From the NCBI GenBank assembly GCA_942492595.1, contig CALOFK010000003.1, forward strand, positions 677,554-741,553: a stretch of DNA of 64,000 nucleotides, given 5' to 3'. The notes beneath the pieces were generated by a model. That model was not told the DNA's origin and searched no databases. It was given only the letters and a program-made list of their open reading frames with translations. The position numbers and the translations under genes were made by a program. The DNA comes from an uncultured Marinilabiliaceae bacterium (lineage in GTDB: Bacteria > Bacteroidota > Bacteroidia > Bacteroidales > VadinHA17). The stretch's first letter is position 1. The number at the start of each line of letters is the position of its first letter. Shown in pieces: positions 7,563-62,810 of this stretch.

Positions 7563-8774
7563 TTACCTGTACAGGTATACAAAGCCCCTGTGTTCCTTTC
7601 CATCGTATACTACATCATCCCAGCCAGTTGCCCTGATTACATAGTAGTAAATGCCCGGACTGGCCGGTGATGATCCAATCTTTCCATCCCAGCCCTGCCA
7701 GTCCTTAATTGAATCCTCGTCACCACTAAAATAGTAAACTCTTTTACCGGACTTGCTGAAAATCTGGACATCTATTCTTCTGAGTGATTTTGACTCAACA
7801 TAGAAGAACTCGTTATTACCATCTCCGTCGGGAGTAAATACATTTGTAATGTTTAAAGATGAAGGCTGTACTGTTATATTATCTATTTTCATAGAATCGA
7901 CACATCCCTGGTCGCTTTCTATCATCAATCTCAGTGTGTACTGGCCGGGCTTATAATATGTATGTGAAAGAGGGATTGGATCATTAGATATACTCTCATC
8001 ACCGAAGCGCCAGGTATATTCGAATGCCCTGATAGATTTATCTGTTATAAAGACCTCGAGAGGAGCCTCTCCATCAGCAGGATCGACCTCAAACTCAGCT
8101 TTAACATGTATCGATTCGTAATTAAATGAAGATAAGGCGGTGCACCCGAAACTGTCTGTAACCATAAGATTATATTCAACATCTTCGAGGGGCGGGTCGT
8201 AAGTAATCGGATCTATTTCAAGTGCCGGATAGGGTATACTTGAAACAGGATCTGAAGACCATAGAAAAGCTATATCATTGGGTAGTTCTATGCTTTGCCC
8301 GCTAATAATATCATAATAATCAAAATTATCCTTAGCAACTGTGCCATTTAATGCCACATAGTAACAACTTCTGTTCTGAAGCTCTGCCAGCGAATAGGGA
8401 TTATCAATATGTATCCATGCAATAAGTGAGGTATCGTAAGCAAAACCATCTGTAATTCTAACCCTGTAGCCTCCCTCCCCAAGAGGAGTTCTGTCAGAGT
8501 TTAGAACTCCAGGATCTGTTCCCAGCGAAATGCTAAAGTCTGATGTATTGGTATCCCACTGTGTCCATTCAAAATCAAAAGGGCCTGTACCCCCGGGGCT
8601 GCTCGCCTGCAGAGAAGGTGTCGATCCACCTGATGCACAATAGATATATACAGGATGCTTCTCTCCCCCGCTAAGATAGTTAGTAAATCTTAGCGCATTA
8701 CTCCCGGGACCTGTCACCTGGGCAGATAAGAGGGCTGATAAAAACAGAAAAACGAGTATAAAAATTCTTCTCAC
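7563..8774 (-). CDS. Secreted PKD-domain protein with T9SS type-B (gliding-motility CHU_C) C-terminal sorting domain
   Basis: GTG start and signal peptide ...LLSA/QV. It has a PKD-like segment (EAPLEVFITDKS...YTWRFGD...HTYYKPGQYTLRL). The C-terminus NVFTPDGDGNNEFF...WDGK...GIYYYVI matches the type-B sorting domain pattern. Confidence 0.85.
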   Translation of the reverse strand: MRRIFILVFLFLSALLSAQVTGPGSNALRFTNYLSGGEKHPVYIYCASGGSTPSLQASSPGGTGPFDFEWTQWDTNTSDFSISLGTDPGVLNSDRTPLGEGGYRVRITDGFAYDTSLIAWIHIDNPYSLAELQNRSCYYVALNGTVAKDNFDYYDIISGQSIELPNDIAFLWSSDPVSSIPYPALEIDPITYDPPLEDVEYNLMVTDSFGCTALSSFNYESIHVKAEFEVDPADGEAPLEVFITDKSIRAFEYTWRFGDESISNDPIPLSHTYYKPGQYTLRLMIESDQGCVDSMKIDNITVQPSSLNITNVFTPDGDGNNEFFYVESKSLRRIDVQIFSKSGKRVYYFSGDEDSIKDWQGWDGKIGSSPASPGIYYYVIRATGWDDVVYDGKEHRGFVYLYR

Positions 8775-14008: not shown

Positions 14009-14056
14009 GTTTGGGTGTTCGGGTATTCGGATGTTCGGGTATTTGGGTTTTAGTGA
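14009..14056. repeat. G/T-rich intergenic repeat with four GGG tracts and a 12-bp direct repeat
   Basis: TGTTCGGGTATT occurs at 14016-14027 and 14032-14043. GGG tracts lie at 14013, 14021, 14037 and 14045. The ending GTTTTAGTGATGG resembles the other GTTTAG/GTGATGG repeats in the window. Confidence 0.6.
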
Positions 14057-24430: not shown

Positions 24431-24480
24431 CTACCTCCCTCACCTCACCCCATCACCCCATCACACCATTACCCAATCAT
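24431..24480. repeat. C/A-rich low-complexity tract with tandem ACCCCATC units (G-tracts on the minus strand)
   Basis: The sequence is CTACCTCCCTCACCTCACCCCATCACCCCATCACACCATTACCCAATCAT. C3-4 runs start at 24437, 24448, 24456 and 24472. Confidence 0.6.
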
Positions 24481-24517
24481 CCAATAACAGGCTTAAAGAT
24501 GCTACCCATTGACTTTA

Positions 24518-24545
24518 GTCTTTTGTCTTTTGTCCTTTGTCTTAC
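24518..24545 (+). repeat. Four tandem 7-bp units GTCTTTT/GTCCTTT upstream of the grpE promoter
   Basis: The sequence is GTCTTTTGTCTTTTGTCCTTTGTCTTAC. A further TTGTCC occurs at 24557-24562. Confidence 0.6.
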
Positions 24546-24574
24546 TTTCTGTCATTTTGTCCAAACATAATGCT

Positions 24575-24590
24575 TGGCAGAGTATTTGCT
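24575..24590 (+). promoter_or_regulatory. Sigma-54-type -24/-12 promoter element upstream of grpE-dnaJ
   Basis: TGGCAG(24575-80)-AGTAT-TTGCT(24586-90). It matches TGGCAC-N5-TTGCW at 10 of 11 positions with exact spacing. The ATG at 24624 is 34 nt downstream. Confidence 0.55.
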
Positions 24591-25415: not shown

Positions 25416-26567
25416 ATGTCAAAAAGAGATTATTACGAAGTACTTGAAGTTTCAAAGAGTGCAAGCAAAGAAGAGATCAAAAAGGCTTACAGAAAGAAAG
25501 CACTTCAATATCATCCTGATAAGAATCCTGGAGATTCCGGGGCCGAGGATAAATTTAAGGAGGCAGCAGAAGCCTACGAAGTTCTTCGCGACGACAACAA
25601 GAGAGCACGGTACGACAGGTATGGTCATGCCGGCATGGGTAATGCCGGTGGATTTAGTGGAGGTGGAATGTCGATGGATGATATCTTCTCATCCTTTGGC
25701 GATATATTTGGGGATGCTTTTGGCGGTTTCGGAGGTTTCGGAGGATTTAGCGGAGGCAGGACAAGAGAAAGAGTAAATAAGGGATCAAACCTGAGAGTAA
25801 GGGTTAAACTTACCCTTGCAGAGGTAGCAAAAGGCGTAGAAAAGAAAATAAAAGTTAAAAAGTATGTCTCCTGTGAAGTCTGCGGAGGATCTGGTGCGGC
25901 TGACAGCAATAGCTTCAGCACATGCTCAACATGCCAGGGAGCAGGAAGGGTAACCCGGGTTACCAACACCATACTGGGACAAATGCAAAGTGCCTCAACC
26001 TGCCCTTCATGCGGAGGAGAAGGTAAAATTATCACCAAAAAATGTAATACCTGCTTTGGTGAAGGAATGATAAAAAAGGAAGAGGTCATAACTATTAAGA
26101 TTCCTGCCGGGGTTGGGAATGGCATGCAGCTTACCGTTAGCGGTAAAGGAAATGCGGCAAGAAGAGGAGGTATACCGGGCGATCTGCTTGTTATGATAGA
26201 CGAGATAGATGATGACAAGTTGATTAGAGAAGGAAACGACCTTATATATAATCTGTTTATTAGTGTACCCGATGCAATACTGGGCACCCAGGTTGAGATC
26301 CCGACAGTAGAAAACAGTGTTAAAATAAAGATAGAACCAGGCACTCAGGCAGGAAAAATTTTAAGACTCAGAGGTAAGGGAATACCTGATGTTAATGGCT
26401 ATGGAACAGGAGACCTGCTGGTGAACATTAATGTCTGGATTCCGAAGATCCTGACAGCTGAGGAACAGAAACTAATCGAGAAAATAAAAGGTGCCGAATC
26501 GTTTACACCCAAACCAGGTAAGGGAGATAAGGGGTTTTTTGATAGGATGAGATCATACTTTGAATAG
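25416..26567 (+). CDS. dnaJ: Molecular chaperone DnaJ
   Basis: It has a J domain with HPD (YHPDKNPGD), a G/F-rich region and four CxxCxGxG zinc-finger repeats. Confidence 0.97.
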
Positions 26568-28991: not shown

Positions 28992-29045
28992 AATAGTTTA
29001 GTGGTTTAGAAACTAAACAGTTAAGCTTCTAAACCACTAAACCAA
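28992..29045. repeat. Perfect 16-bp inverted repeat built from GTTTAGNG octamers (hairpin/terminator after the ABC operon)
   Basis: GTTTAGTGGTTTAGAA (28996-29011) and TTCTAAACCACTAAAC (29027-29042) are separated by a 15-nt loop. The octamer is related to the tandem repeat at 31661-31691. Confidence 0.7.
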
Positions 29046-29063
29046 TAAACTACTAGAATACCC

Positions 29064-30233
29064 ATGGCAAAAGTACTTGTAATAGACGACGAAAAAGCAA
29101 TTAGGAATACTCTGAAAGACGTTCTCGAATATGAGAAACATATAGTAGATCTTGCACAGGATGGCATAGCAGGTCTTGATTTATTTGCTGAAGGTCACTA
29201 TGATGTAGTACTGTGCGATATAAAAATGGATAACATGGATGGAGTCGAAGTACTGGAAAAAATTCAGGAAACCACACATGATATACCTGTAATTATGATC
29301 TCCGGTCATGGAAATATTGATACTGCCGTTGATGCCATTAAAAAGGGAGCCTTCGATTTTCTTGAAAAACCCCTTGACCTTAACAGGCTGCTTATTACCA
29401 TGCGAAATGCAATGGAAAAATCAAACCTGATAAGCGAAACAAAGGTCCTGAAAAAGAAGGTAAGCAAGAAATATGAAATTATTGGGGAATCAGAGCCAAT
29501 TCTGAAAGTCAAAGAGATGATAGACCGTGTCGCACCCACAGAGGCACGAGTACTTATTACAGGTTCAAACGGAACGGGCAAGGAACTTGTTGCCCACCAG
29601 CTCCATGAGAAAAGCAGTCGATCAAAAGCCCCTTTTATAGAGGTTAACTGTGCAGCAATACCAGGTGAGTTAATTGAAAGCGAACTTTTCGGTCATGAAA
29701 AAGGTTCCTTCACCTCAGCACATAAACAGAGAATAGGAAAGTTTGAACAGGCTGACGGAGGGACAATATTCCTCGACGAAATAGGAGATATGAGCCTTTC
29801 AGCCCAGGCAAAGGTGCTTCGCGCGCTCCAGGAAAATAAGATATCCAGGGTGGGCTCAGATAAAGATATACAGGTAAACGTAAGAGTTATTGCAGCCACC
29901 AATAAAGACCTCAGTAAGGAAATTGAGAATAACAGCTTCAGGGAAGACCTTTATCACAGGTTAAGCGTTATACTGATCAATGTACCTGACCTGAAAGACC
30001 GAAAAATCGATATTCCCTTACTCGCAGATCATTTCAACGACATTATATGTTCCGAATATGGTATGACTAAGAAGATTATTACAAAGGATGCTATCAGCGA
30101 ACTTAAGAAAATTGAGTGGACCGGTAATATACGTGAATTCAGAAATGTTCTTGAAAGGCTTATTATCCTCTGCCAGGAAGAAATAAGGGGAAAAGATGTG
30201 CAGGCATTTGCCCATCCGGTATCAAAAAAATAG
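29064..30233 (+). CDS. Sigma-54-dependent enhancer-binding protein: receiver domain + AAA+ domain, no C-terminal HTH
   Basis: It has REC (VLVIDDE..., LCDIKMDNMDG), Walker A GSNGTGKE, the loop ELFGHEKGSFTSA (a GAFTGA variant), Walker B GGTIFLDEIG and sensor II GNIREFRNVLERL. The protein ends 17 aa later at residue 389. Confidence 0.9.
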   Translation: MAKVLVIDDEKAIRNTLKDVLEYEKHIVDLAQDGIAGLDLFAEGHYDVVLCDIKMDNMDGVEVLEKIQETTHDIPVIMISGHGNIDTAVDAIKKGAFDFLEKPLDLNRLLITMRNAMEKSNLISETKVLKKKVSKKYEIIGESEPILKVKEMIDRVAPTEARVLITGSNGTGKELVAHQLHEKSSRSKAPFIEVNCAAIPGELIESELFGHEKGSFTSAHKQRIGKFEQADGGTIFLDEIGDMSLSAQAKVLRALQENKISRVGSDKDIQVNVRVIAATNKDLSKEIENNSFREDLYHRLSVILINVPDLKDRKIDIPLLADHFNDIICSEYGMTKKIITKDAISELKKIEWTGNIREFRNVLERLIILCQEEIRGKDVQAFAHPVSKK

Positions 30234-30350: not shown

Positions 30351-31649
30351 ATGCTTCGATACCGTTATCTAATACTTGTTATTCTTATAATAGCTCCCCT
30401 GGCTGTGTCTGCCCAGGATATCTTTACAAGCAAAAAAGCTCATGAAGAAAAAGACGCTTTAAGTTCTGAAGAATTAAGGAAGCATGCACTGAATGTATTT
30501 CTTGACTGCTCCTGGTGCGACAGAGACTATATCAAACAGGTTATCCCTTATGTAAATTATGTTACTAATAAGGATGATGCCGATGTTCATATACTGGTAA
30601 GAAGACAGACCAACGGGGGTGGCGGAAGTGAATATATAATCGATTTTATTGGAAGCGGTGATTTTAAAGACCTGGATGACCAACTGAAATTCATATCACC
30701 CGTTGATGAAACACGTGATGAAACAAGAGTGGCCAGATCAGGAATCATTTCGATGGGACTGATGCAATATGTTTCCCGGACACCTATCGGAAGGAACATT
30801 AAGATTATTTATGAGAATAAAGGTGTACCCGAAAGAATACTGAACCCTACCGTGGCTGATGATCCATGGGATAGCTGGATGTTCAGACTGAGAGCCTCGG
30901 GTTCAATAAACAGGGATGAGAATTATAACAACTCAAACATAGAGACCTCTCTTTCGGCCGACAGGGTAACCCCCGAGCTAAAGGTTGAATTCGATGCTGA
31001 ATATGAATTAAACCAGAGAGTCTATAAACTTCTTGAAACAGAAACGATACAGAGGGAGTGGAAATTAAACGGACTAATTGTAAAGAGCTTAAGCCCGAGA
31101 TGGTCGGCCGGAATAAGATCAAATGCTTTTGGTAGCATAAAGAATAATTACGATTATTCAATTTCAGCTGGGCCCGCGATAGAATATAATATATTCCCAT
31201 ACGAAGAGTCTTTTAAGCACCAGGTCAGATTGCAGTATGGAGTTCAATCGGTTTATAATAACTACTCCGATACAACAACCTTGTTGAAAACAGATGAATT
31301 AATCTTTAAACATAGCCTGAGTGTTACAGGTGGAGTAAACAAGGAATGGGGAAATGGTTATATATATATTACCTACTCTAATTACCTGCACGATTTTGAA
31401 TTATATAATCTTACAATCGGGGGAAGAATAGACTATAGAATATATAAGGGCCTGTCGGTTAATTTCAGAACAAGTGCCAGTATTATCCACGACCAGATTA
31501 ACCTGAGGCTTGAAGGTGCGACAACGGATGAAATACTAACCCAGCAATATGCCCTGAAATCAGGTTATAAATACTCCTTCTCGGTAGGATTAACATATTC
31601 CTTTGGTTCAATCTACAATAACGTTGTAAATACCAGATTCGGCAACTAA
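30351..31649 (+). CDS. Uncharacterised secreted protein, probable outer-membrane beta-barrel
   Basis: It has signal peptide ...LAVSA/QD and an N-terminal ~150-aa domain containing CSWCDRDY. The C-terminal ~270 aa show alternating hydrophobic/aromatic strands with short turns. I recognise no family. Confidence 0.6.
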   Translation: MLRYRYLILVILIIAPLAVSAQDIFTSKKAHEEKDALSSEELRKHALNVFLDCSWCDRDYIKQVIPYVNYVTNKDDADVHILVRRQTNGGGGSEYIIDFIGSGDFKDLDDQLKFISPVDETRDETRVARSGIISMGLMQYVSRTPIGRNIKIIYENKGVPERILNPTVADDPWDSWMFRLRASGSINRDENYNNSNIETSLSADRVTPELKVEFDAEYELNQRVYKLLETETIQREWKLNGLIVKSLSPRWSAGIRSNAFGSIKNNYDYSISAGPAIEYNIFPYEESFKHQVRLQYGVQSVYNNYSDTTTLLKTDELIFKHSLSVTGGVNKEWGNGYIYITYSNYLHDFELYNLTIGGRIDYRIYKGLSVNFRTSASIIHDQINLRLEGATTDEILTQQYALKSGYKYSFSVGLTYSFGSIYNNVVNTRFGN

Positions 31650-31660
31650 CAACTGGCATA

Positions 31661-31691
31661 AACCCCTAAACCTCTAAACCTCTAAACTATT
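31661..31691. repeat. Tandem octamer repeat CCCTAAAC-CTCTAAAC-CTCTAAAC (complement of GTTTAGNG)
   Basis: The sequence is AACCCCTAAACCTCTAAACCTCTAAACTATT. The reverse complement of 31672-31691 matches 28992-29011 at 18 of 20 positions. Confidence 0.7.
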
Positions 31692-33251: not shown

Positions 33252-33788
33252 ATGATCGCTAAGGAAAAAAATATTATTGAGAAGTGCCAGGAAGGCGATG
33301 TTAAAGCGCAATTCCTCTTATATAAACAATACTCAAAAGCAATGTACAATATCGCTATCAGATTCCTTAATAATACGATGGATGCCGAAGACATTCTCCA
33401 GGAATCATTTCTATCTGCTTTTGAAAAAATAGATAGCCTGGCAAATACCAATTCATTTGGGTCATGGCTGAAAAGAATAGTAATTAATAATTGCCTGAGC
33501 CTGCTTAGAAAGAAGAAAATATATTATGAAGATATAGATGATTATAAACTTGAAGATGTTGATGAGCACGACTCGTTTGCTGATATTGACCCGGTAGTGG
33601 TACACAGGGAAATCAAAAACCTGCCAGATGGAGGCAGAACAATTCTGGTGTTACATGCTCTTGAAGGGTATAAGCACAGGGAAATTGCAAAAATGATGGG
33701 CATAAGTGAATCGACAAGCAGGACCCAGTATAAAAGAGCTCTTGGAATACTGAATAAAAACGTAAAGGAGAAAGTATATGTCAACTAA
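33252..33788 (+). CDS. RNA polymerase ECF-type sigma-70 factor
   Basis: It has region 2 (AMYNIAIRFLNNTMDAEDILQESFLSAF) and a region 4 HTH (GYKHREIAKMMGISESTSRTQYKRAL). Length is 178 aa. Confidence 0.92.
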   Translation: MIAKEKNIIEKCQEGDVKAQFLLYKQYSKAMYNIAIRFLNNTMDAEDILQESFLSAFEKIDSLANTNSFGSWLKRIVINNCLSLLRKKKIYYEDIDDYKLEDVDEHDSFADIDPVVVHREIKNLPDGGRTILVLHALEGYKHREIAKMMGISESTSRTQYKRALGILNKNVKEKVYVN

Positions 33789-34341
33789 GTTCGAAAAATA
33801 TCTTAAAGAAAACCGTCGTGTTTTCGATGTTGAATATCCCGACGATGAAGCTATCTGGAGAAGGATGGAGGAGAACAGACCGGAACAGAATAGAAGCAAA
33901 AAGGGAAGGTCCATCAGGATAAGCGCAAAATTCCAAAGGATAGCAGCTTCTGTAATAATAGTAATTGCATTATCATATATAGCTATTGACCTCAGTATAG
34001 GGATCTCATTTAATAATAATAACTCCTCCCTCTCGCAGATAAACAGCCAATATGGAGAAATTGAACAGAATTATATGCAAGTGGTAAAGTATAAGAAGGA
34101 AGAAATAAACAACACCAGCATACCTGATAACGATATTATTAGGTCAATACTGGGGGAACTTAAACAACTGGATAAACTCTACAGTGAAACACAGGAAGAT
34201 CTTCAAAAACTTGGCGACAATGAAAGAGTTGTAAATACAATATTTAATATCTACGAGCGAAAGATAGAGCTACTTGAGAGAATAATAGTAGAAACAAATA
34301 AATACGATAATTATGAAAAAAATAATAAATCCGAGATTTAG
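33778..34341 (+). CDS. Putative anti-sigma factor (single-pass membrane protein)
   Basis: It overlaps the sigma gene by 11 nt. It has one TM (IAASVIIVIALSYIAIDL) between a short cytoplasmic N-terminus and a ~110-aa extracytoplasmic part. Confidence 0.65.
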   Translation: MSTKFEKYLKENRRVFDVEYPDDEAIWRRMEENRPEQNRSKKGRSIRISAKFQRIAASVIIVIALSYIAIDLSIGISFNNNNSSLSQINSQYGEIEQNYMQVVKYKKEEINNTSIPDNDIIRSILGELKQLDKLYSETQEDLQKLGDNERVVNTIFNIYERKIELLERIIVETNKYDNYEKNNKSEI

Positions 34342-46156: not shown

Positions 46157-46597
46157 TCACAAACTTTTTCTTTTACCTAATAATCTGGAAAATAGCGATC
46201 CTCTCCTGTTCAGTAACCTTTCCGTTTCCTTTTCACGCATCTCGTACAGACTCAGATCCTGCCAAATTTCACTCCATCCCCTAAATCCACCTACATTCTT
46301 ATCGTCGATAAATACATCCGCATTTACCTTCCTGCTTATCGATTCATTATAAACTTCTTCAGGGTAGTTCTTATTTATAGCATAAAACTCAATCCCTTTA
46401 GAGAGGCAATATTCAACTGCCTCATCCAATTCTTTCCCGGCCCTGAAGGTCCATAAGATTAACAGAGCTCCATTCTTCTGAAGTTCCTTCAGGGTCTCAA
46501 AAGCAAATAAAAGATCCTTTCCAATTTCAGGATACTCATGTTCAACAATAGTGCCATCAAAATCGACTGCTATTTTAAGATTCTTAAGGTGCTCCAT
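46157..46597 (-). CDS. Small HAD-like hydrolase-fold protein
   Basis: It has the N-terminal motif KIAVDFDGTIV (DxDGT) and a late FIDDK. It lies 1 nt upstream of the glutaminyl cyclase gene. Confidence 0.6.
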   Translation of the reverse strand: MEHLKNLKIAVDFDGTIVEHEYPEIGKDLLFAFETLKELQKNGALLILWTFRAGKELDEAVEYCLSKGIEFYAINKNYPEEVYNESISRKVNADVFIDDKNVGGFRGWSEIWQDLSLYEMREKETERLLNRRGSLFSRLLGKRKSL

Positions 46598-46692: not shown

Positions 46693-47391
46693 ATGAAAAA
46701 GCATATTCCTAACCTTCTGACCTTATTAAATCTGGCATCCGGATTTATTGCTATAATATTTATTACAAGAGGTGAAGTGTTAATAGCTGCATGGATACTT
46801 GGCGTTGCTCTGGTATTTGATTTTATGGATGGACTGGCTGCCAGGTTTTTGAATGCAGGGTCTGAACTTGGAGTACAACTCGACAGCCTTGCAGATCTTG
46901 TTAGTTTTGGTGTTGCTCCCGGACTGATGATGCATCATCTTATACTTACAGGAAATGGCGCCGAAGAGTTTAAAAACTATCTTATCTGGCTTCCTATTAT
47001 TATACCCGTTTTATCAGGACTGAGACTGGCTATTTTTAATCTAGATGATTCACAGACAGATTCTTTCAGAGGATTGCCAACACCTGCAAATGCTATCTTT
47101 ATTATTGGACTGATTATAACAAGTGAATTGTCAGAAAGCCAGATTATAGAAACTCTTTACTCATCTAGATGGGTGCTCAGTTTCTTTACTCTCTGTTTTT
47201 CTGTTCTAATGGTTACCAGGATCCCGATGTTTTCACTGAAGGTAAAGCACCTCAGGTTTAAAGGAAATGAATTAAGGTTTATTTTCATCCTTTTAACTAT
47301 AATGCTTGCAGCCGGGACAGGTATTGATTCTATACCCCTGATAATTATTCTCTACGTTACCGTATCAATCAGTCACGGCCTTATCAGCTGA
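46693..47391 (+). CDS. pssA: CDP-diacylglycerol--serine O-phosphatidyltransferase (CDP-alcohol phosphatidyltransferase family)
   Basis: It has the motif DFMDGLAARFLNAGSELGVQLDSLADLVSFGVAP (D-G-x2-A-R-x8-G-x3-D-x3-D) and multiple TMs. Confidence 0.88.
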   Translation: MKKHIPNLLTLLNLASGFIAIIFITRGEVLIAAWILGVALVFDFMDGLAARFLNAGSELGVQLDSLADLVSFGVAPGLMMHHLILTGNGAEEFKNYLIWLPIIIPVLSGLRLAIFNLDDSQTDSFRGLPTPANAIFIIGLIITSELSESQIIETLYSSRWVLSFFTLCFSVLMVTRIPMFSLKVKHLRFKGNELRFIFILLTIMLAAGTGIDSIPLIIILYVTVSISHGLIS

Positions 47392-48489
47392 GCCGTTTGC
47401 AGCCTTCTTCTTTGTAATCATTACTTCCGTCTGTCTCCTTATTGATTCCTGGTGTAGATGCTTAAGCAGCTGTTCCATAAACCTTGTATCCAGATCTACT
47501 CTATTTCCATGCTCAGTTCTTGTTTTAAGTATCTCAAGCCACCTGTCCATCTGCAAAACCGATACATTATTACTGAACTTATACTCGGCTATCCTTTCTA
47601 TTATCTTCATCCTCTCACTTAATAGCTCAACAAACTGGTGATCGATTGAATCGACCTGGTTCCTGAGCTCTTCAAGGTCATCCAGAAATCCCGGGTCGTC
47701 GAACCGGGGCTTTCTTATTACCAGCCTTTCGATAAGCTCATTATATTGGATGGGAGTAATCTGCTGATTACAATCGCTTAATGCGCTGGATGGATCGGAA
47801 TGCACCTCTACCATCAAACCATCCATATTAAGGTCCATTGCCTTCTGCGACACTTCATATACCAATGATGAATCACCACTTATATGACTGGGGTCGCATA
47901 GTAGTGGAATATTATTTATCCGTCTTCTCAATTCAATGGGTATCTCCCACTTGGGCATATTCCTGTAGAGGGTGCGTTCAAAAGGTGAAAATCCGCGATG
48001 TATCGCCGCGATCTTACTTATTCCGGCACCATAGATCCTTTCAATTGCTCCAATCCATAAATCAATATCAGGATTAAGAGGGTTCTTAATAAATATAGGC
48101 ATATCAACACCCTGTAGCGACCTTGCAATCTCATCTACTGAAAAAGGATTTGAGACAGTCCTTGCCCCTATCCATAATATATCAATACCTGCCTCAATAC
48201 ACTGCTCCACATGCTTGGCCGAAGCCGCTTCAACAGCAATACGGAAACCAAATTCCTGCTTCACATTAGCCAGCCACTTCAATCCTTTCTGGCCCACTCC
48301 GCTGAATGATCCGGGACGCGTCCGTGGCTTCCATATACCCGCTCTAAATACCGCCGGCGATATCCCTGCACTTAGTGCAGAGGCAATCTCCATAAGCTGC
48401 TTTTCAGACTCAGCACTACAGGGTCCGGCAATAAAAAACGGACCCCTGTTAAAGTTATCAAACCAATTTTCTATAGGAACAATATTCAT
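47365..48489 (-). CDS. Bifunctional 3-deoxy-7-phosphoheptulonate (DAHP) synthase / chorismate mutase
   Basis: The N-terminal ~270 aa are type I-beta DAHPS/KDO8PS-like (IAGPCSAES...PRT...FRG...CDPSH). The C-terminal ~90 aa are AroQ chorismate mutase-like (IDHQFVELLSERMKIIERIAEYK). Confidence 0.88.
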   Translation of the reverse strand: MNIVPIENWFDNFNRGPFFIAGPCSAESEKQLMEIASALSAGISPAVFRAGIWKPRTRPGSFSGVGQKGLKWLANVKQEFGFRIAVEAASAKHVEQCIEAGIDILWIGARTVSNPFSVDEIARSLQGVDMPIFIKNPLNPDIDLWIGAIERIYGAGISKIAAIHRGFSPFERTLYRNMPKWEIPIELRRRINNIPLLCDPSHISGDSSLVYEVSQKAMDLNMDGLMVEVHSDPSSALSDCNQQITPIQYNELIERLVIRKPRFDDPGFLDDLEELRNQVDSIDHQFVELLSERMKIIERIAEYKFSNNVSVLQMDRWLEILKTRTEHGNRVDLDTRFMEQLLKHLHQESIRRQTEVMITKKKAANGSADKAVTD

Positions 48490-48699
48490 ACCGCGAACTT
48501 CGTGCTTAACTGTATAATTTGATAATATAATTTCAGATTGGAATAAGGCGAACTAAATATAAGAATAATCTACCAGATCGCAGGCGACAAAAACAAAGAA
48601 GTAAACACTGCAAAATGCATAATCCTAATGCCAAATTTGCACCTTGCCGAACAACAACATGTCGTTTTGTCAGTCTTTGACTCGACAACACTGCCATTA

Positions 48700-48715
48700 T
48701 GGCACCTTTGCTGCC
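48700..48715 (+). promoter_or_regulatory. Sigma-54-type -24/-12 element upstream of hsp20
   Basis: TGGCAC(48700-05)-CTTTG-CTGCC(48711-15). The -24 box is perfect and the -12 box retains TGC. The ATG at 48783 is 68 nt downstream. Confidence 0.4.
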
Positions 48716-48782: not shown

Positions 48783-49199
48783 ATGTTACCAATTAGAAGA
48801 ACTTACAAACCGATGTATATGTCGAACTTTTTTGACAATGATCTTGATACATTTTTCAAACCGGCAAGCACATTTAAGCCAGCAGTAAATGTAAGGGAAG
48901 ATGATAAAGCTTATAATATTGAACTGGCACTTCCTGGTATGTCGAAAGAAGATATTAAGATTGAGATAGAAAAGAATACTCTTATGATATCTTCTGAAAA
49001 AAATGAAAGCAAGGAAGAAGTTAGCGACTCTTATAACCTTAGGGAATTTGGCTACCAGTCATTTTGCAGAAACTTTACAATTCCGGAAAATGCAGATGCC
49101 GAGAAAATAAGTGCATCATACAAAGACGGAATACTGAATGTTGGGATTCCAAAGTCTCAAAAGGACACAAAAGTAAACAGACATATAAAGATATCGTAG
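48783..49199 (+). CDS. Hsp20/alpha-crystallin family small heat-shock protein
   Basis: It has the alpha-crystallin domain PAVNVREDDKAYNIELALPGMSKEDIKIEIEKNTLMIS...F.R.F.LP...I.A.Y.DGIL.V..PK. AAGGAGG lies 8 nt upstream of the ATG. Confidence 0.92.
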   Translation: MLPIRRTYKPMYMSNFFDNDLDTFFKPASTFKPAVNVREDDKAYNIELALPGMSKEDIKIEIEKNTLMISSEKNESKEEVSDSYNLREFGYQSFCRNFTIPENADAEKISASYKDGILNVGIPKSQKDTKVNRHIKIS

Positions 49200-52016: not shown

Positions 52017-54071
52017 TTAAGATTCCTTTTTCTTCTTCGCAGTTCGAGGAGCTTTCGTTGCAGCTTTTGGCTTCTCTTTTTCGGCAGCCTCTTTAGCAAT
52101 ATCGCCGGCTCTTTTACCAAATACCTTTTCAAGGTCTTCACTGAAGATCACTTCCCTTTCGAGCAAGAGATTTGCAAGTTCTTCGAGTCCTTTTCTGTTA
52201 TTCTTAAGCACCTCTTTAGCTCTTTCGTAAGACTGACTTACAATACGTTTTGCCTCAGCATCAATAAGTTCTGCTGTTTTTTCACTGTAAGGCTTTGTAA
52301 ATCCATATTCATTCTGACCTGAAGAATCGTAGAAGCTTAGATTACCTACTTCAGGACTCATTCCGAAATATGAAACCATAGCATATGCTTGCTTTGTAAC
52401 CTTCTCAAGATCGTTAAGTGCACCTGTAGATATTTTTCCAAACACTATTTCTTCAGAAGCTCTTCCCCCAAGTGCGTATGCCAGTTCGTCAAGAATCTGT
52501 TCCTGGGTGGTAAGAGATCTCTCCTCGGGAAGATACCATGCCGCTCCAAGTGCTCGGCCCCTGGGTATTATTGTTACTTTAACCAGCGGACTGGCATACT
52601 TTAACAACCAGCTTACCGTTGCATGACCAGCTTCATGAAAAGCAATAGTTTTCTTCTCCTCAATTGAAATAATCTTATTCTTTCTTTCCAGTCCACCAAT
52701 AATTCGATCTACAGCATCCAGAAAATCCTGCTTTCCTACCATTTTCTTATTCTTCCTGGCTGCTATCAAAGCAGCCTCATTGCACACATTAGCAATATCA
52801 GCACCTGAAAATCCGGGGGTCTGCTTGGCAATAAAATCAATATCAAAGTTCTTAGGCAACTTGATGGGCCTCAGGTGAACCTTAAAAATTTCTCTCCTCT
52901 CGTTCAGGTCAGGTAATTCCACATGAATCTGCCTGTCGAATCTGCCTGCTCTGAGCAAAGCCCTGTCGAGCACATCGGCCCTGTTTGTTGCTGCCAGAAT
53001 TATTACGCCAATATTTGTTCCGAACCCATCCATCTCGGTAAGTAACTGATTAAGGGTATTTTCCCTTTCGTCGTTAGCTCCAAAGTTAGCATTCCTTCCT
53101 CTGGCCCTTCCAACGGCGTCTATCTCATCAATAAATACTATACAGGGTGCCTTTTCTTTAGCCTGCTTAAAAAGGTCTCTTACACGTGAAGCGCCTACTC
53201 CAACAAACATTTCAACAAAATCAGAACCAGATATTGAGAAGAATGGAACATTGGCTTCACCGGCAACAGCTTTAGCCATTAATGTTTTACCTGTTCCGGG
53301 AGGTCCTACAAGTAATGCTCCCTTAGGTATTTTACCTCCCAGAGAAGTGTATTTTTTGGGGTTTTTAAGGAAATCGACAATCTCCATTATTTCAGTCTTT
53401 GCCTCTTCCAGTCCCGCTACGTCTTTAAAGTTAATTTTAACATTTGTATCCTTATCGAAGATCTGGGCTTTTGACTTGCCAACACTAAAAATATTACCAG
53501 CTCCACCGCCAGCACCTCCACCACCAGCCATTCTACGAAAGATAAACACCCAGATAAGTAAAATAATTACAAATGGCAGTATCCAGCCAAGGATATCTCC
53601 CATATAATTCCTTCTTGTTTCATAAGAAGGATGTATCCTCTCAGACTGTGAATAATCGGCCCTATCCTGTACCTCGGATAATTGCTTGTCGAATAGCTCA
53701 ACAGATGCGATATTATAAATAAAATTAGGTCCTACCTGACCCATACTAAAGGGATTGCTCCCTCCTGAGGCTTCAGGGTATCTTCCGGATTCTACAGCCT
53801 CCGGTTTAAGATATAGTTCTGCCTTATCCTTATTTACCACTACTATCCTTTCGATGTCACGATTATTAATCATCATCTCGACATCACCCCATTCCATAGA
53901 TTTAGTAAGGTTTCTGCCTCCGAAAAGAAGGTTTATCCCTATAAAACCAAGGGCCAGGGCTGCCAGAATCCAGTTTAAATTGAATTTCGGCTTACCATCC
54001 TTGCCATCCTTACCATCCTTTGGACCATTCTTTCCCAGCCTGGGATTATTATTATTACTCTTCTCTGCCAT
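52017..54071 (-). CDS. ftsH: ATP-dependent zinc metalloprotease FtsH
   Basis: It has Walker A GPPGTGKT, Walker [10 protein letters not shown], the SRH region and the zinc site HEAGHA. Length is 684 aa. Confidence 0.97.
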
Positions 54072-54083
54072 TTCTTAAAACTC

Positions 54084-54461
54084 TTAATTTTTTTTACTGT
54101 CAACAATATTTTCAATCTCCGCATCTGCCCAGAGTCCTTCAAGGTTATAAAACCTTCTATACTCTTCCATAAAGATATGAACAATAACATTTCCATAATC
54201 AAGTAAAACCCAGAAGCAATTATCCAATCCTTCCTTATGTATGGGGCGTTCACCACTGAGCGACTTAACCTTTGCAATCACTGATTCTGCAATAGAATCT
54301 ACCTGTGTTCCGGATTGTGCATCAGTAATAATAAAGTAATCACAAACTGAACTCTCCAGTTTGCCCATCCCTACTTTTACAACATTGTTCCCGCTCTTTT
54401 CAAATATCCCTTCAATTATATTCTCTACAAGCTGCGTAGTATCATCTTTCTTTTTGCTCAT
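54084..54461 (-). CDS. rsfS: Ribosome silencing factor RsfS (Iojap family)
   Basis: 125 aa with the pattern CDYFIITDAQSGTQVDSIAESV...WVLLDYGNVIVHIF..E.R.FY.LE.LW. Confidence 0.9.
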   Translation of the reverse strand: MSKKKDDTTQLVENIIEGIFEKSGNNVVKVGMGKLESSVCDYFIITDAQSGTQVDSIAESVIAKVKSLSGERPIHKEGLDNCFWVLLDYGNVIVHIFMEEYRRFYNLEGLWADAEIENIVDSKKN

Positions 54462-54545: not shown

Positions 54546-54561
54546 TACAATTACAGTGCCA
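54546..54561 (-). promoter_or_regulatory. Sigma-54-like -24/-12 element upstream of rsfS-ftsH operon (imperfect -12)
   Basis: The minus strand reads TGGCAC-TGTAA-TTGTA. The -24 box is perfect, but the -12 box has GT instead of the conserved GC. It is 85 nt upstream of the rsfS ATG at 54461. Confidence 0.3.
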
Positions 54562-56427: not shown

Positions 56428-57051
56428 ATGTATAAAATTTATTTAGATAACAGGTTTATTATTCTTAGCAGTCAACCCGACCATAGGCAAAATTACTGCT
56501 TATTACATAAATACAATAATCAGGAAGCACTTTCTGAGCAAATATCTGCTTTCCTGTCGGACGAGAGTATTAATTTTCTTAATATATATTCGGCCGATAT
56601 AGAGTCACTCTGGCAATCTTTCAAGGAGATATTTCATTTTCTCGAAGCTTCAGGTGGCATCGTTAAAGACAATAAGGGAAACCTGCTGCTAATAAAGAGA
56701 TATAAAAGATGGGATGCTCCGAAAGGTCATTTTGAACCATGTGAGACTCCAGAATTATGTGCCCGAAGGGAAATAAAAGAAGAATGTGGAATTGTGTGTG
56801 GCAATACTATTGCAGAGTTGTCGCCAACTTACCATGTTTATAAATTCAGGGAGGAATACTACCTTAAGAAAACATACTGGTTTCTATTTGACTATTCAGG
56901 TAATGGAAAAACCATACCCCAGCAGGAAGAGGGTATTACTCAGGCAGACTGGATTAAAAGGGATTCAATCGACGATATTATTAAAGATATGTGGCATTCG
57001 ATAAGGGATGTGCTTTCAGAAGTTATTGAAAAGCATATATCTTACAAATAA
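56428..57051 (+). CDS. NUDIX hydrolase
   Basis: The Nudix box is GHFEPCETPELCARREIKEECG. The ATG at 56428 avoids overlap with the divergent pyrE start; the track uses the TTG at 56413. Confidence 0.85.
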   Translation: MYKIYLDNRFIILSSQPDHRQNYCLLHKYNNQEALSEQISAFLSDESINFLNIYSADIESLWQSFKEIFHFLEASGGIVKDNKGNLLLIKRYKRWDAPKGHFEPCETPELCARREIKEECGIVCGNTIAELSPTYHVYKFREEYYLKKTYWFLFDYSGNGKTIPQQEEGITQADWIKRDSIDDIIKDMWHSIRDVLSEVIEKHISYK

Positions 57052-57518
57052 TCATCAATATTTATTCCTTTGGGAATAAAAGGAGATGCATCTCCACCAT
57101 TCCTGATAACATCTCTTACAATAGTTGAATTAATCGGTGTAAGTTCGGGAGTTGTAAGAAGCATTATTGTATCCAGATCAGGATACATTGCCTTATTCAT
57201 CTGTGCTATTGCTCTTTCATACTCAAAGTCAGCCGCTGTTCTTATTCCACGAAGAATATATCTCGCACTTTTCTCCCTGGCAAAATCTACAGTAAGTCCC
57301 TTATAATGTTCAACCTTTATCATTGGATAGCTATTAAAAATATCCCTGATCATTTTCTCCCTGTTAGCTAGTGAAAAAAAGCCATCTTTAAGTGCATTCG
57401 GACCTATAGCAATTATAATCTCATCAAACAGACCCAGTGCCCTTTTAATAATAGATTCATGTCCAAGGGTAAACGGATCAAAAGATCCGGGAAACAAAGC
57501 AATTCTTTTATCAGTCAT
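57042..57518 (-). CDS. coaD: Pantetheine-phosphate adenylyltransferase
   Basis: It has FPGSFDPFTLGH (T/HxGH nucleotidyltransferase motif) and ISSTIVR-like NSTIVRD. The ATG is at 57518. Confidence 0.93.
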   Translation of the reverse strand: MTDKRIALFPGSFDPFTLGHESIIKRALGLFDEIIIAIGPNALKDGFFSLANREKMIRDIFNSYPMIKVEHYKGLTVDFAREKSARYILRGIRTAADFEYERAIAQMNKAMYPDLDTIMLLTTPELTPINSTIVRDVIRNGGDASPFIPKGINIDDYL

Positions 57519-57535
57519 ATCTTTCTGTATTATTA

Positions 57536-59755
57536 TCAAACTATTTCCTTATCCTCATTTGCATTAACGAAAAGGATATTCCCCAGGTCCTTATATCCTT
57601 CGAAAGTTTCAGTCCCATATTGTTTTAATTCATTCCCAGTAAACCCAATTATTGTAAGATCTGCATCGGTAGAGTATTTACAAATAATATCATGCATATC
57701 CTCATCAGCGTCAACCAGCTGAATATTAGAGGCAGATATTGGCAGTCGGCCCGATTTAATAAGCTCGAGGAGCTGCTCTTTCTTTTTCTCCAGCAGGTGT
57801 ACTTTAACAGAGGCAAAAATCTTAATTTCGCCACCATTCCAGTCGGGATGACCCAGGATAATATATGCCATAAGGATCATCAGGTTTGAATTTTCAAAAT
57901 CGTTCGGGCTTATCCATACATGTATTTCTTTCCTGTATCCAAATCCTTTATAAGAGGTACTTAACACACAGGTATCAAAGCCTGTTGAACTTATCAGGTC
58001 ATAATTTTTAAGAGGTTCTTTCAGTTTTTCTTGCTCCGTCCTGGAAAACTCAAATAATATCATATTATTACCCTTACCTGAGATTCCTGATAACTGAATT
58101 ACCTGAGCAATGGCCGTTGTGTAAGACGGGCTTATAATAGTATCGACATAGACCCTGCTTTTACTGCCTGCAGTAAGATTAAGTAATTTACGTACAGACT
58201 CCTTCGATTCCCTGTTTGTTTCCTGATTAAGCAGACCTTTAATATAATGTATATATGTTCCAAACCCGTGCCTGTATGAAATCCAGCGAAGCAGATCAAA
58301 AGCTGTTCGTCTCTTAAATGAATCGGCCGAAATACAAATTGCAAAAGGCCGCCAGGAAGAGTTCAGATCCTCCTTATCGGCTCTCTGGGCAAAAACTTGC
58401 AACTGTCTGCTTAGCTGGAATATAACTCCGCGGAATAATTTGGCAAGTCCTTTTCTTTCCCTTCCTGTTTTGCTAATCATCCAATAAAAGAAGCCCATCA
58501 GCATTAAGGCTATAATGGCGTAAGGAGTATTCATCTTAAACATAAGCCAGATAGACAGAACAGCCCCTACAAGAGAAATATACCATCGGGATTTAAAGGT
58601 AGGCCGGTAGGACGGATCGGCAGCAAAATGTTCCAGTACGGAAATAATACAGATGGCACCATAGGTAACCATAAAGAACATTGAAATAATCTGGGCTACA
58701 AAATTAATATCCCCAACCAGAATAAAGGCAAAGGCAATCAGTATAGTAACGAGTGAAGAATTTATTGGTTCGTTAGAGCCCTTTTTACCCTTAGCAAACC
58801 ATCGGCTTATTATTTTAGAAGGAAATATCCTGTCATTTCCCAGTGCCTGGAGCGTACGCGGTCCAACCATAATCGACCCGAGGGCGGATGAGAGTGATGC
58901 TGCTGCCAATCCAATGGGTATTATTGGGCCCCACAGTGCAATCCGGCTCATTATAAGCTGATCATTTCCAAGATCTTCGGGTGTTGCTGAGATAACAAGT
59001 TTATAAGCAACCGCGATATAAATAAAAAAACCGGCCGCAGTTGCAAGGAGGGTTCCCCTTGGAATAGATTTCTGAGGTTCCTTGAGGTCGCCCGACAAGC
59101 CCAGCCCAGCAGCAAGGCCCGTAAAAGCAGGAAAGACAATCATAAATACATAAAAGAAGCTATCGGGGTTTGCAACTCTCTCTCCAAGGTTAACTACTTC
59201 CGGGGGAGCCTGACCTTTCCCTGCAAAGAAAAAAGCAAGTGAAGTAAAAAGAAGAGCTACTACAACATAGAGGAACTTCATCCCAAGGTTTGCCCCACGT
59301 GTAAGGAAGAGTATTGACAGAAGAAGCATAGTGGGGATAGAAATCCATCTTTTATCGGGGATAACTATATCCCATCTATTGGACAAAAAACTTATCAGGG
59401 GGTCAAATGCCTCAGCGAAGGCAATAATATAGAAAGCTACGCTTATTGCCTGCGAAAGATAGAGAGCCAGGCCGATAGACGCTCCTATATTAATACCAAA
59501 TGATCTGGATATAATATAATATGCCCCTCCTCCTCTCACCTTCTGGTTGGTTGCAATTTCGGCAACAGCCATAGCTGTTGGAAAGGTAACCAGGTGACCC
59601 AGCAATATAATTCCGATAACACCAATAAAACCAACATTTCCAACTGCATACCCAAACCTCAGGAAAAGTATTGCTCCCAGGATAGTGGAAATGGCGGTCA
59701 TAAAGACCGGCATTGTACCAAAGTTGGCCTTTTGTTCTGATATCAGACGTGGCAT
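57536..59755 (-). CDS. APC-superfamily transporter of the cation-chloride cotransporter (SLC12-like) type with large cytoplasmic C-terminal domain
   Basis: 739 aa. The N-terminal ~470 aa have ~12 TMs with an amino-acid-permease-like pattern (GAILFLRFGY, GDLKEPQKSIPRGT). The C-terminal ~270 aa form a soluble domain, as in prokaryotic CCC homologues. Confidence 0.75.
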   Translation of the reverse strand: MPRLISEQKANFGTMPVFMTAISTILGAILFLRFGYAVGNVGFIGVIGIILLGHLVTFPTAMAVAEIATNQKVRGGGAYYIISRSFGINIGASIGLALYLSQAISVAFYIIAFAEAFDPLISFLSNRWDIVIPDKRWISIPTMLLLSILFLTRGANLGMKFLYVVVALLFTSLAFFFAGKGQAPPEVVNLGERVANPDSFFYVFMIVFPAFTGLAAGLGLSGDLKEPQKSIPRGTLLATAAGFFIYIAVAYKLVISATPEDLGNDQLIMSRIALWGPIIPIGLAAASLSSALGSIMVGPRTLQALGNDRIFPSKIISRWFAKGKKGSNEPINSSLVTILIAFAFILVGDINFVAQIISMFFMVTYGAICIISVLEHFAADPSYRPTFKSRWYISLVGAVLSIWLMFKMNTPYAIIALMLMGFFYWMISKTGRERKGLAKLFRGVIFQLSRQLQVFAQRADKEDLNSSWRPFAICISADSFKRRTAFDLLRWISYRHGFGTYIHYIKGLLNQETNRESKESVRKLLNLTAGSKSRVYVDTIISPSYTTAIAQVIQLSGISGKGNNMILFEFSRTEQEKLKEPLKNYDLISSTGFDTCVLSTSYKGFGYRKEIHVWISPNDFENSNLMILMAYIILGHPDWNGGEIKIFASVKVHLLEKKKEQLLELIKSGRLPISASNIQLVDADEDMHDIICKYSTDADLTIIGFTGNELKQYGTETFEGYKDLGNILFVNANEDKEIV

Positions 59756-62222: not shown

Positions 62223-62295
62223 ACGATCTGATCTAATATGCCAAAATTACATATAGTTTTACAAAAACCATTCATTTATCTAACACACTGATTAA

Positions 62296-62311
62296 AGCAA
62301 TTGTTGTGCCA
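62296..62311 (-). promoter_or_regulatory. Sigma-54-type -24/-12 promoter element upstream of lon
   Basis: The minus strand reads TGGCAC(62311-06)-AACAA-TTGCT(62300-296), a perfect match to TGGCAC-N5-TTGCW. It is 74 nt upstream of the lon ATG at 62222 and downstream of the L31 terminator. Confidence 0.6.
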
Positions 62312-62384
62312 TCAGCTTATCTACCTGATAAACTATAAATTAAAAGAAATTGGCAGGACAATATGACCTGCTATATCAAATAGA

Positions 62385-62417
62385 ATAAAATAAAAAAAGC
62401 CCCATTAAATGAGGCTT
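62385..62417 (-). terminator. Rho-independent terminator after the L31 gene
   Basis: The minus strand reads AGCCUCA-UUUAA-UGGGGCU (7 bp including one G-U) followed by UUUUUUUAUUUU. Confidence 0.7.
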
Positions 62418-62441
62418 CCTGTTTTCAAACAATAACTCTTA

Positions 62442-62702
62442 TTATTTCTTCGATCCGTGGTTTTTATACCTGTTCATAAATTTATCAACCCTACCGGCTG
62501 TGTCTACAAGCTTCATCTTTCCAGTGTAAAAAGGATGGGATGTGTTTGATATCTCAAGCTTTATAAGGGGATACTCTTTACCGTCATCCCACTTAACTGT
62601 CTCTTTTGAAGGCGCAGTTGACCTGGTAAGAAATGAAGTATCATTTGACATGTCCTTAAAGACAACAAATCTGTAATTATCAGGATGTATATTCTCTTTC
62701 AT
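62442..62702 (-). CDS. rpmE2: 50S ribosomal protein L31, type B (zinc-independent)
   Basis: It has [17 protein letters not shown]...HPFYTGK with no CxxC zinc motif. The true start is the internal ATG at 62702; the track ORF begins 14 codons upstream. Confidence 0.92.
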
Positions 62703-62810
62703 CTCTCTTCTTTTTTTTAATCCGTTCACCACTATTTTGGGCATGCAAAATTAACTAACATATTTTAATTTGCAAAGATATCCCAATAAATTTAAGGTCC
62801 CGGGATAATA

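Follow-up and report, generated by a model that had tools for sequence, protein, structure and literature searches.

Is the gene for the ATP-dependent protease Lon of an uncultured Marinilabiliaceae bacterium (Bacteroidota; Bacteroidales) read from a sigma-54 promoter and, if so, from that promoter alone and with which activator? The question is raised by a stretch of 64,000 nucleotides (nt) of contig CALOFK010000003.1 (assembly GCA_942492595.1, positions 677,554 to 741,553), here called the window, in which a perfect match to the -24/-12 consensus of sigma-54 (RpoN) lies a short distance upstream of lon. This box, at 62311..62296 on the minus strand, is very probably a working sigma-54 promoter of lon, one member of a sigma-54 regulon for protein quality control in the Bacteroidota. 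It appears to be paired with a housekeeping sigma-A promoter, and a candidate activator is encoded elsewhere in the window (Table 1).

The sigma-54 box upstream of lon

Read on the minus strand, the sequence around the motif is gctgaTGGCACaacaaTTGCTttaatcag, with its first T at 62311 and its final T at 62296. It agrees with TGGCAC-N5-TTGCW at 11 of 11 consensus positions, and the GG and GC dinucleotides are separated by exactly 10 nt. The box is intergenic and on the lon strand, between the terminator of rpmE (62420..62394) and the lon start codon at 62222, with 74 nt from its 3' end to the A of the ATG. The first-pass annotation had described a perfect sigma-54 motif at this distance from lon, just past the terminator of the L31 gene, and both the sequence and the coordinates agree with that description. 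Taken alone, the site is only suggestive because its exact form, found once in the window, has a chance expectation of 0.07 there and occurs at least once in 7 of 100 shuffles. With one mismatch allowed there are 6 matches in the window against 1.65 expected; the one at 46556..46541 lies within a coding sequence (DFDGTIVEH) and was rejected as a chance match. A position weight matrix built from the lon sites gives no further standout in the window, a scan of little power in that a similar score appears once in 20 mononucleotide shuffles.

The comparison with relatives carries more weight. A search with the Lon protein gave 80 loci from metagenome-assembled genomes of Bacteroidales/Marinilabiliaceae, with Lon identities of 70-93% (93% in the closest relative, L001, and 82% in the second closest, L002). 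A strict motif, TGG[CT]A[CT]-N5-TTGC, is present in 56 of them when the 400 nt preceding the gene are searched on its own strand; elsewhere in these loci (~1.24 Mb, both strands together) there are 7, a background that predicts ~0.18 upstream of lon. Variants with CGGCA add 4 loci, and TTGA or TTGT at -12 another 4 (L002, L013, L022, L030). The first-pass annotation had made its claim depend on the presence of the motif upstream of lon in close relatives, and with these variants it is kept in 64 of the 80 loci, or 65 of 81 when the window is counted. When the loci are aligned on the motif, mean pairwise identity rises from 0.30 upstream to 0.86 in the core, falls to 0.36 over the following 19 nt, and is 0.85 around a TAnnTTTG element further downstream and 0.32 beyond it. 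A core at 0.86 between flanks of random-level identity indicates that the box is under selection and not merely inherited. The spacer starts with AAT[CG]A in the dominant form among the 80 loci, so that the box of most relatives reads TGGCACAATCATTGCA and that of the window TGGCACAACAATTGCT. A palindrome in this spacer, CAAT-N-ATTG, was considered as a separate operator and discarded, as it is broken by the TGGCAT variants.

A measured counterpart comes from Flavobacterium psychrophilum, where a map of transcription start sites (TSSs) defined a motif class, SM4, that corresponds to sigma-54 -24/-12 promoters (Guerin et al. 2021, PMC9723704). Promoters of this class include those of groES-groEL, lon, dnaK, grpE-dnaJ, htpG, skp and clpB, and the chaperone genes and lon form a single co-expression cluster, B254 (PMC9723704). 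The lon promoter, ATGGCACAATCCTTGAC, is entered in the available part of that source with TSS 1168709, class Sig54, a posterior of 0.999 and a leader of 116 nt. If the printed 61 nt are taken to span -50..+10, the GG counts to -25/-24, the GA to -13/-12, and the TSS lies 12 nt past -12; the printed promoter ends 10 nt past the TSS, short of the +51 position at which a sigma-A box might follow. The proposal in the first-pass annotation, that a sigma-54 -24/-12 promoter serves lon, thus finds support in the GG/GC spacing, in the conservation among 64 of 80 loci, in an enhancer-binding protein encoded in the window and in this mapped start.

Two further observations concern the form and distribution of such boxes. 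The C of the -12 element is often replaced by A or T (TTTGA, TTTGT), especially in the boxes upstream of grpE (loci L081-L160, see below) and also in the lon boxes of L002, L013, L022 and L030. In the part of the F. psychrophilum data available, lon (TTGA) and groES (CTGA), both with mapped starts, likewise deviate at -12; the invariant part is TTG, not GC. Separately, a second conserved sigma-54-type box, TGGCA[TC]TGAAATTGCA, occurs at ~8351-8438 on the plus strand of L011, L018, L046, L063 and L071, ~3 kb past the end of lon and at the extreme edge of the fetched loci.

The sigma-A box, its spacing and rival readings

Downstream of the sigma-54 box lies a second conserved island, AAAATAtTATGTAAaTTTGgCA, which includes TAnnTTTG. 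This is the -7 box of sigma-A promoters in the Bacteroidota, located at -12..-5 in F. psychrophilum (PMC9723704). Within 400 nt upstream of lon it is found in 77 of 81 loci, compared with a rate of 0.029 per 100 nt in lon coding sequence, and it persists in loci that have no sigma-54 box. Of the 65 loci with a sigma-54 box, 62 fall into two classes of distance, measured between the T of TGGCA and the TA of TAnnTTTG: 50-53 nt in 57 loci, and 62-63 nt in 5 loci, among them the window and L001. The 35 nt between the boxes are randomised (identity 0.36), and the sigma-A box itself lies anywhere between 22 and 254 nt from the ATG. In the window, ~48 nt separate the predicted sigma-A start from the predicted sigma-54 start upstream of it; in most relatives the figure is ~37 nt. 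From this arrangement lon is predicted to have two promoters, a distal one for sigma-54 and a proximal housekeeping one for sigma-A. A single promoter had been annotated before; its sigma-54 box stands, and the conserved sigma-A -7 box had been overlooked.

In about one third of the relatives the lon leader past the sigma-A box is 90-250 nt long, compared with ~15-30 nt elsewhere (the long leaders include L007, L009, L012, L016-L020, L024, L027, L029, L031 and L034). It has no open reading frame (ORF) and no obvious conserved sequence. A search of the lon leader for structured RNA in Rfam gave sub-threshold, terminator-like matches only, and the predicted leader fold is no better than shuffles (z = 0.49). 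Repeats of GACAAAAG are seen in long lon leaders of relatives (leaders with repeats: L016, L031, L018, L042).

The proposed mechanism runs as follows. Sigma-54 RNA polymerase would bind the -24 GG (62310/62309) and the -12 GC (62298/62297) as a closed complex, which an AAA+ enhancer-binding protein would open by hydrolysing ATP. Transcription would then proceed from ~62285 through lon and probably on into the neighbouring transporter gene and coaD. The housekeeping sigma-A promoter (TAATTTTG, start ~62237), inside the sigma-54 leader, would provide basal expression of lon. The predicted sigma-54 start falls within the upstream portion of the sigma-A promoter, and the two holoenzymes are therefore expected to compete.

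Competition of this kind could in principle be the main function of the box. The sigma-54 holoenzyme would then act chiefly as a roadblock, its closed complex gating lon transcription from the sigma-A promoter with little productive initiation of its own. Given the fixed spacing, the predicted sigma-54 start (index +26) coincides with the expected place of the sigma-A -33 element, some relatives have TTGA or TTGT at -12, and in Escherichia coli sigma-54 holoenzyme is known to occlude sigma-70 promoters that it overlaps, for example at glmY. However, a primary 5' end was detected for the F. psychrophilum lon promoter, which itself has TTGA at -12 and is part of a cluster of chaperone genes that are induced together. 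Since productive initiation does not preclude occlusion, the roadblock is more an addition to a working promoter than an alternative, and as a replacement for one it appears improbable.

The box might instead be an operator. A regulator, for instance a response regulator, would recognise the direct repeat TKGCA-N6-TKGCA, whose halves are one helical turn apart, and would exert positive or negative control on the sigma-A promoter from a position near -56 or -67. The spacing fits this well: the step between the two distance classes is about one helical turn, as is typical of activator sites that depend on the face of the helix, and the distance is kept while the sequence between the boxes and the distance to the ATG are not. 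Against it, the invariant positions are exactly the GG and TTG(C) of sigma-54. The geometry of a second box of the same type, upstream of grpE, also argues against an operator for a sigma-A promoter. Of 73 related grpE loci, 59 keep the pattern TGGCA-N6-TTG[CAT], in most cases 48-51 nt before the ATG (background, 57 matches in 0.92 Mb of these loci), and since an ATG ~49-51 nt away leaves no room for a downstream sigma-A promoter, the grpE box must itself be the promoter. In F. psychrophilum the lon start lies 12 nt past the -12 element of the orthologous box (again read as -50..+10), with no neighbouring TSS among the rows of that table available. Mutation of conserved bases in remFG-sprCDBF, another promoter of the motif class, lowered its activity (PMC9723704). 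There is accordingly little to recommend an operator over a sigma-54 promoter at lon, and we consider it quite improbable. The last possibility, a chance consensus match in AT-rich intergenic DNA, could appeal to the chance expectation of 0.07 for an exact match in the window, to the shuffle that equalled the matrix score and to the coding match at 46556, and it is refuted, with a practically negligible probability, by the conservation data (56 upstream motifs against ~0.18, in a core flanked by random-level identity), the motif moreover recurring with a mapped TSS in another class of the phylum.

Candidate activator, grpE and the surrounding genes

No conserved enhancer is present upstream of the -24 box of lon between -160 and -4 in the anchored alignment of 61 loci, where columns reach at most ~0.6 bit; upstream information above ~0.6 bit occurs only in two columns adjoining the sigma-54 box. 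Two inverted repeats in this flank had been suggested in the first-pass annotation as sites for an activator or an architectural protein. The first, GCAGG-N9-CCTGC, is indeed there (62371..62353). The second, given as TATCAG-N9-CTGATA, was misread by one base: the sequence is TATCAG-gtagataag-CTGAT-G, with 5-bp arms ATCAG/CTGAT, the final T being shared with TGGCAC. Both are absent from L001, L002 and the 61-locus alignment, which leaves them as species-specific 5-bp repeats and removes the suggested role. An upstream enhancer is typical of sigma-54 promoters and not obligatory, and its absence at lon would suit an activator devoid of a DNA-binding domain.

The window has one such gene. The predicted activator encoded at 29064..30233 aligns to positions 1-372 of 452 of the NtrX model and 1-379 of 463 of the NtrC model (NCBIfam), and since both alignments stop before the models end, its C-terminal helix-turn-helix is missing. 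Its best relatives in the PDB are NtrC1, NtrC4 and NtrX, and the loop that contacts sigma-54 reads GSFTSA in place of GAFTGA. Among metagenomic contigs fetched with GrpE, the order grpE-dnaJ-ABC ATPase-ABC-2 permease-activator(-orf432) is found in 14 loci longer than 7 kb. L131 shares this order, and the activator gene there, the fifteenth ortholog, runs off the contig (all activator loci: L084, L088, L090, L091, L093, L094, L098, L105, L117, L131, L132, L142, L145, L157, L158). The orthologs are conserved at 72-83% identity. Of the 14 complete ones, 13 have 383-391 amino acids and one (L145) has 552, and every one carries G[SA]FTSA. Membership of the activator gene in the grpE-dnaJ transcript was considered and is unlikely: a terminator-like hairpin follows dnaJ, and neither the dnaJ-ABC gap nor the ABC2-activator gap contains a sigma-54 box. 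No kinase was identified beside the activator gene, and the adjoining ORF at 30351..31649 has no family match.

With no conserved enhancer at lon, an activator that works from solution is the most likely class. Within the window the best candidate is the protein encoded at 29064..30233, on the grounds that it has no DNA-binding domain and that its gene is linked to grpE-dnaJ in relatives; further activators may be encoded elsewhere in the genome. Which activator acts at lon is something we infer, as is the inducing signal. A published survey found sigma-54 in every genome with activators of this kind (PMC12316311); the activator gene, together with this invariable co-occurrence, implies that rpoN is present in this genome. 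A more far-reaching proposal can be made, which we put forward as possible and on the unlikely side: the two boxes, whose spacing is conserved over dozens of species, would form one rigidly phased switch, in which the closed sigma-54 complex gates the housekeeping promoter, and which is fired without an enhancer by the receiver-AAA+ protein encoded at 29064..30233, itself a master regulator of the proteostasis regulon of the Bacteroidota.

Several points weigh against a working sigma-54 promoter of lon with this activator. The box is missing in 16 of the 80 relatives, mostly the more distant ones, where the sigma-A box alone is kept (one of the loci without the box has upstream sequence too short to judge), so sigma-54 control of lon must be dispensable in part of the clade. 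L002 has TTGA at -12, a form that the classical consensus would rate as weak, although F. psychrophilum uses it. Two independent promoters do not predict a fixed spacing with a step of one helical turn. No rpoN gene was found among the window ORFs scanned, those left unscanned being too short. The link between the activator and lon is drawn from the absence of an enhancer and the synteny with grpE-dnaJ, and the activator cluster is probably a separate transcription unit. Finally, for this organism the start sites and the dependence on sigma-54 are themselves something that we infer.

The first-pass annotation had placed the lon box in a wider, proteostasis-linked sigma-54 pattern, and this holds up in that the window contains the grpE box TGGCAGagtatTTGCT, of the type kept in 59 of 73 grpE loci. 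This predicted sigma-54 box at grpE, and its conservation, are counted among the new points of the analysis. No groES-EL, dnaK, htpG or clpB gene turned up among the window ORFs scanned. The grpE loci L081-L160 share a further element, a palindrome TGnCA-WWW-TGnCA whose position relative to the T of TGGCA is fixed at -24..-26 (61 matches; TGTCATTTTGTCC in the window, 24550-24562, plus strand); the palindrome may be the operator of some regulator. In the available part of the F. psychrophilum supplement, the sigma-54 promoter of clpB shows ACATTTTGTCC at a similar upstream position (PMC9723704). The grpE-type palindrome TGnCA-N3-TGnCA is absent upstream of lon, with 3 occurrences in the 1.27 Mb of the lon loci. 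The intergenic sequence TGGCACtgtaaTTGTA at 54546-54561 (minus strand) lies 100 nt before rsfS (54084..54461), after which comes ftsH (52017..54071), and may be a further sigma-54 box, with the -12 variant TTGT, before a protease operon.

Most of the 80 lon loci share the gene order GNAT-L31-lon-coaD-nudix, and in ~70 of the 80 lon is followed by coaD. A transporter gene between the two is limited to the window, L001 and L002. From this distribution, lon-coaD would be the ancestral arrangement and the transporter gene a lineage-specific insert. The gap between lon and the transporter gene is 10 nt, with no minus-strand terminator found in it, and the two are probably co-transcribed; by its insertion, the transporter gene may thus have come under the lon promoters. 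The earlier suggestion that the co-oriented transporter and coaD genes are served by the lon promoter is therefore plausible as regards co-transcription, the transporter being an addition of this lineage only.

Table 1. Features of the lon and grpE regions of the window (64,000 nt), with predicted promoter elements
Feature	Position	Strand	Details
Predicted sigma-54 promoter core of lon, TGGCACaacaaTTGCT	62311..62296	minus	GG 62310/62309 (-25/-24), GC 62298/62297 (-13/-12)
Predicted sigma-54 start	62284..62286, +1 ~62285	minus	From the -12 C at 62297; leader ~63 nt
Putative Bacteroidota sigma-A -7 box, TAATTTTG	62249..62242	minus	Consensus TAnnTTTG; predicted start ~62237, leader ~15 nt
lon (ATP-dependent protease La), 818 amino acids	59766..62222	minus	Pfam Lon_C, LON_substr_bdg, AAA; NCBIfam TIGR00763 'endopeptidase La', 900.9 bits
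Cation-chloride cotransporter-like permease	57536..59755	minus	Pfam AA_permease; TIGR00930 (K-Cl cotransporter subfamily) 297.9 bits, below the cut-off of 953.4
coaD (pantetheine-phosphate adenylyltransferase)	57042..57539	minus	NCBIfam TIGR01510
rpmE intrinsic terminator	62420..62394	minus	12-pair stem, then T-run
rpmE (ribosomal protein L31), upstream neighbour of lon	62442..62744	minus	Pfam Ribosomal_L31
Second sigma-54-type box, TGGCAGagtatTTGCT	24575..24590	plus	49 nt upstream of the grpE ATG (24624); dnaJ at 25416
Sigma-54 enhancer-binding protein (candidate activator), 389 amino acids	29064..30233	plus	Pfam Response_reg, Sigma54_activat (E = 2.2e-71) and AAA_lid_14; no HTH_8

Some other features of the window stand apart from lon. 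Short tandem repeats of 7-8 bp (TCACCCCA, TTGTCTT, CTAAACCA, TAAACCTC, GGGTATTC) are abundant in the intergenic DNA of this genome and its relatives, in the window at 14013-14048, 24445-24479, 24509-24543, 29029-29055 and 31659-31687. They differ by locus and look like a habit of the lineage, not a site. At 33252-34341 (plus strand) a gene for an extracytoplasmic function (ECF)-type sigma factor of 178 amino acids is followed by an overlapping ORF of 187 amino acids without a family match, which is probably an anti-sigma factor; the pair is unrelated to the lon finding. A perfect palindrome, TGCCATTATGGCA, which matches the grpE-box pattern, lies at 48692-48704, between a DAHP synthase/chorismate mutase gene (47365..48489, minus strand) and an ORF at 48783..49199 (plus strand).

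Comparison with known systems

The closest known counterpart is the lon promoter of F. psychrophilum. Its box, TGGCACAATCCTTGAC, is near-identical to TGGCACAACAATTGCT of the window, with the same -24/-12 geometry, and shares the spacer start AATC with this clade. That organism belongs to the Flavobacteriia, has TTGA at -12 and a measured TSS, whereas the window is from the Bacteroidia, has TTGC and a predicted TSS. The lon promoter is therefore orthologous across the two classes, its box conserved to the start of the spacer, and a base other than C at -12 is functional. An in silico survey of Flavobacteriia and Bacteroidia found sigma-54 promoters enriched before genes for GroEL/ES, GrpE, DnaJ/K, IbpA and HtpG, and before those for the proteases COG0542, COG0466 (Lon) and COG1066 (Carrera-Reyna et al. 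2025, PMC12316311). That work is a statistical survey at the level of COGs, and does not treat promoter architecture, the sigma-A box, spacing or the activator. As both the F. psychrophilum map and the survey list Lon, the kind of promoter is already known, and a sigma-54 promoter at lon is expected rather than surprising. What the ~80 uncultured Bacteroidales genomes supply is comparative support for one Flavobacterium map and an in silico prediction. Besides the grpE box, the points that appear new are a putative sigma-A -7 box whose distance to the sigma-54 box is fixed among relatives, and a predicted sigma-54 activator in the window that has no DNA-binding domain and is syntenic with grpE-dnaJ. 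With no conserved enhancer, a candidate activator of this type near grpE-dnaJ and a fixed distance to the housekeeping promoter, the question of which protein activates the regulon, and in what way, could become directly testable. For Bacteroides thetaiotaomicron, sigma-54-dependent grpE and groES are reportedly to be credited to work by Sabree and colleagues (2009); the term 'sigma54' does not occur in the paper on the TSSs of that species.

In E. coli, lon, dnaK and grpE have sigma-32 heat-shock promoters, often beside sigma-70 promoters. The logic is the same, in that a stress sigma factor serves the proteostasis genes, here in tandem with a housekeeping promoter. The difference is in the factor: RpoH of E. 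coli is of the sigma-70 type and is controlled through its abundance, with no ATP-dependent activator, whereas chaperone and protease genes of the Bacteroidota have sigma-54 promoters.

A combination of lon and sigma-54 is also said to occur in Myxococcus xanthus, where, in work reportedly by Ueki and Inouye (2002), the heat-shock promoter of lonD is activated by the two-component system HsfA/HsfB. This would likewise be a gene of the lon family with sigma-54, an AAA+ activator with a receiver domain and a link to proteotoxic stress, in an unrelated phylum. HsfA is said to have a DNA-binding domain and upstream sites, in contrast to the present case. Here there is no conserved site upstream of lon, the only activator in the window has no helix-turn-helix, and no adjoining kinase was identified, so that the arrangement is not of the HsfA/HsfB-lonD type.

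Activators without a DNA-binding domain, such as FlgR of Helicobacter and CtcC of Chlamydia, form a known minority, type Ic (Francke et al. 2011, PMC3162934). Like the protein encoded at 29064..30233, FlgR and CtcC consist of a receiver and an AAA+ domain with no helix-turn-helix, and they engage the sigma-54 holoenzyme without an enhancer, which fits lon. They differ in controlling flagellar or developmental genes, whereas the link of the window protein to lon is a predicted one; the sigma-54-contacting loop of the window protein reads GSFTSA rather than GAFTGA.

Tandem or overlapping promoters for sigma-54 and sigma-70 are known from E. coli glnAp1/p2 and glmY. In both, as is predicted for lon, the two promoter types are close enough to compete, but their order and spacing differ. 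Unlike glnAp1/p2 and glmY, lon in these Bacteroidales would have its housekeeping promoter downstream of the sigma-54 start, at a distance that is conserved across many species.

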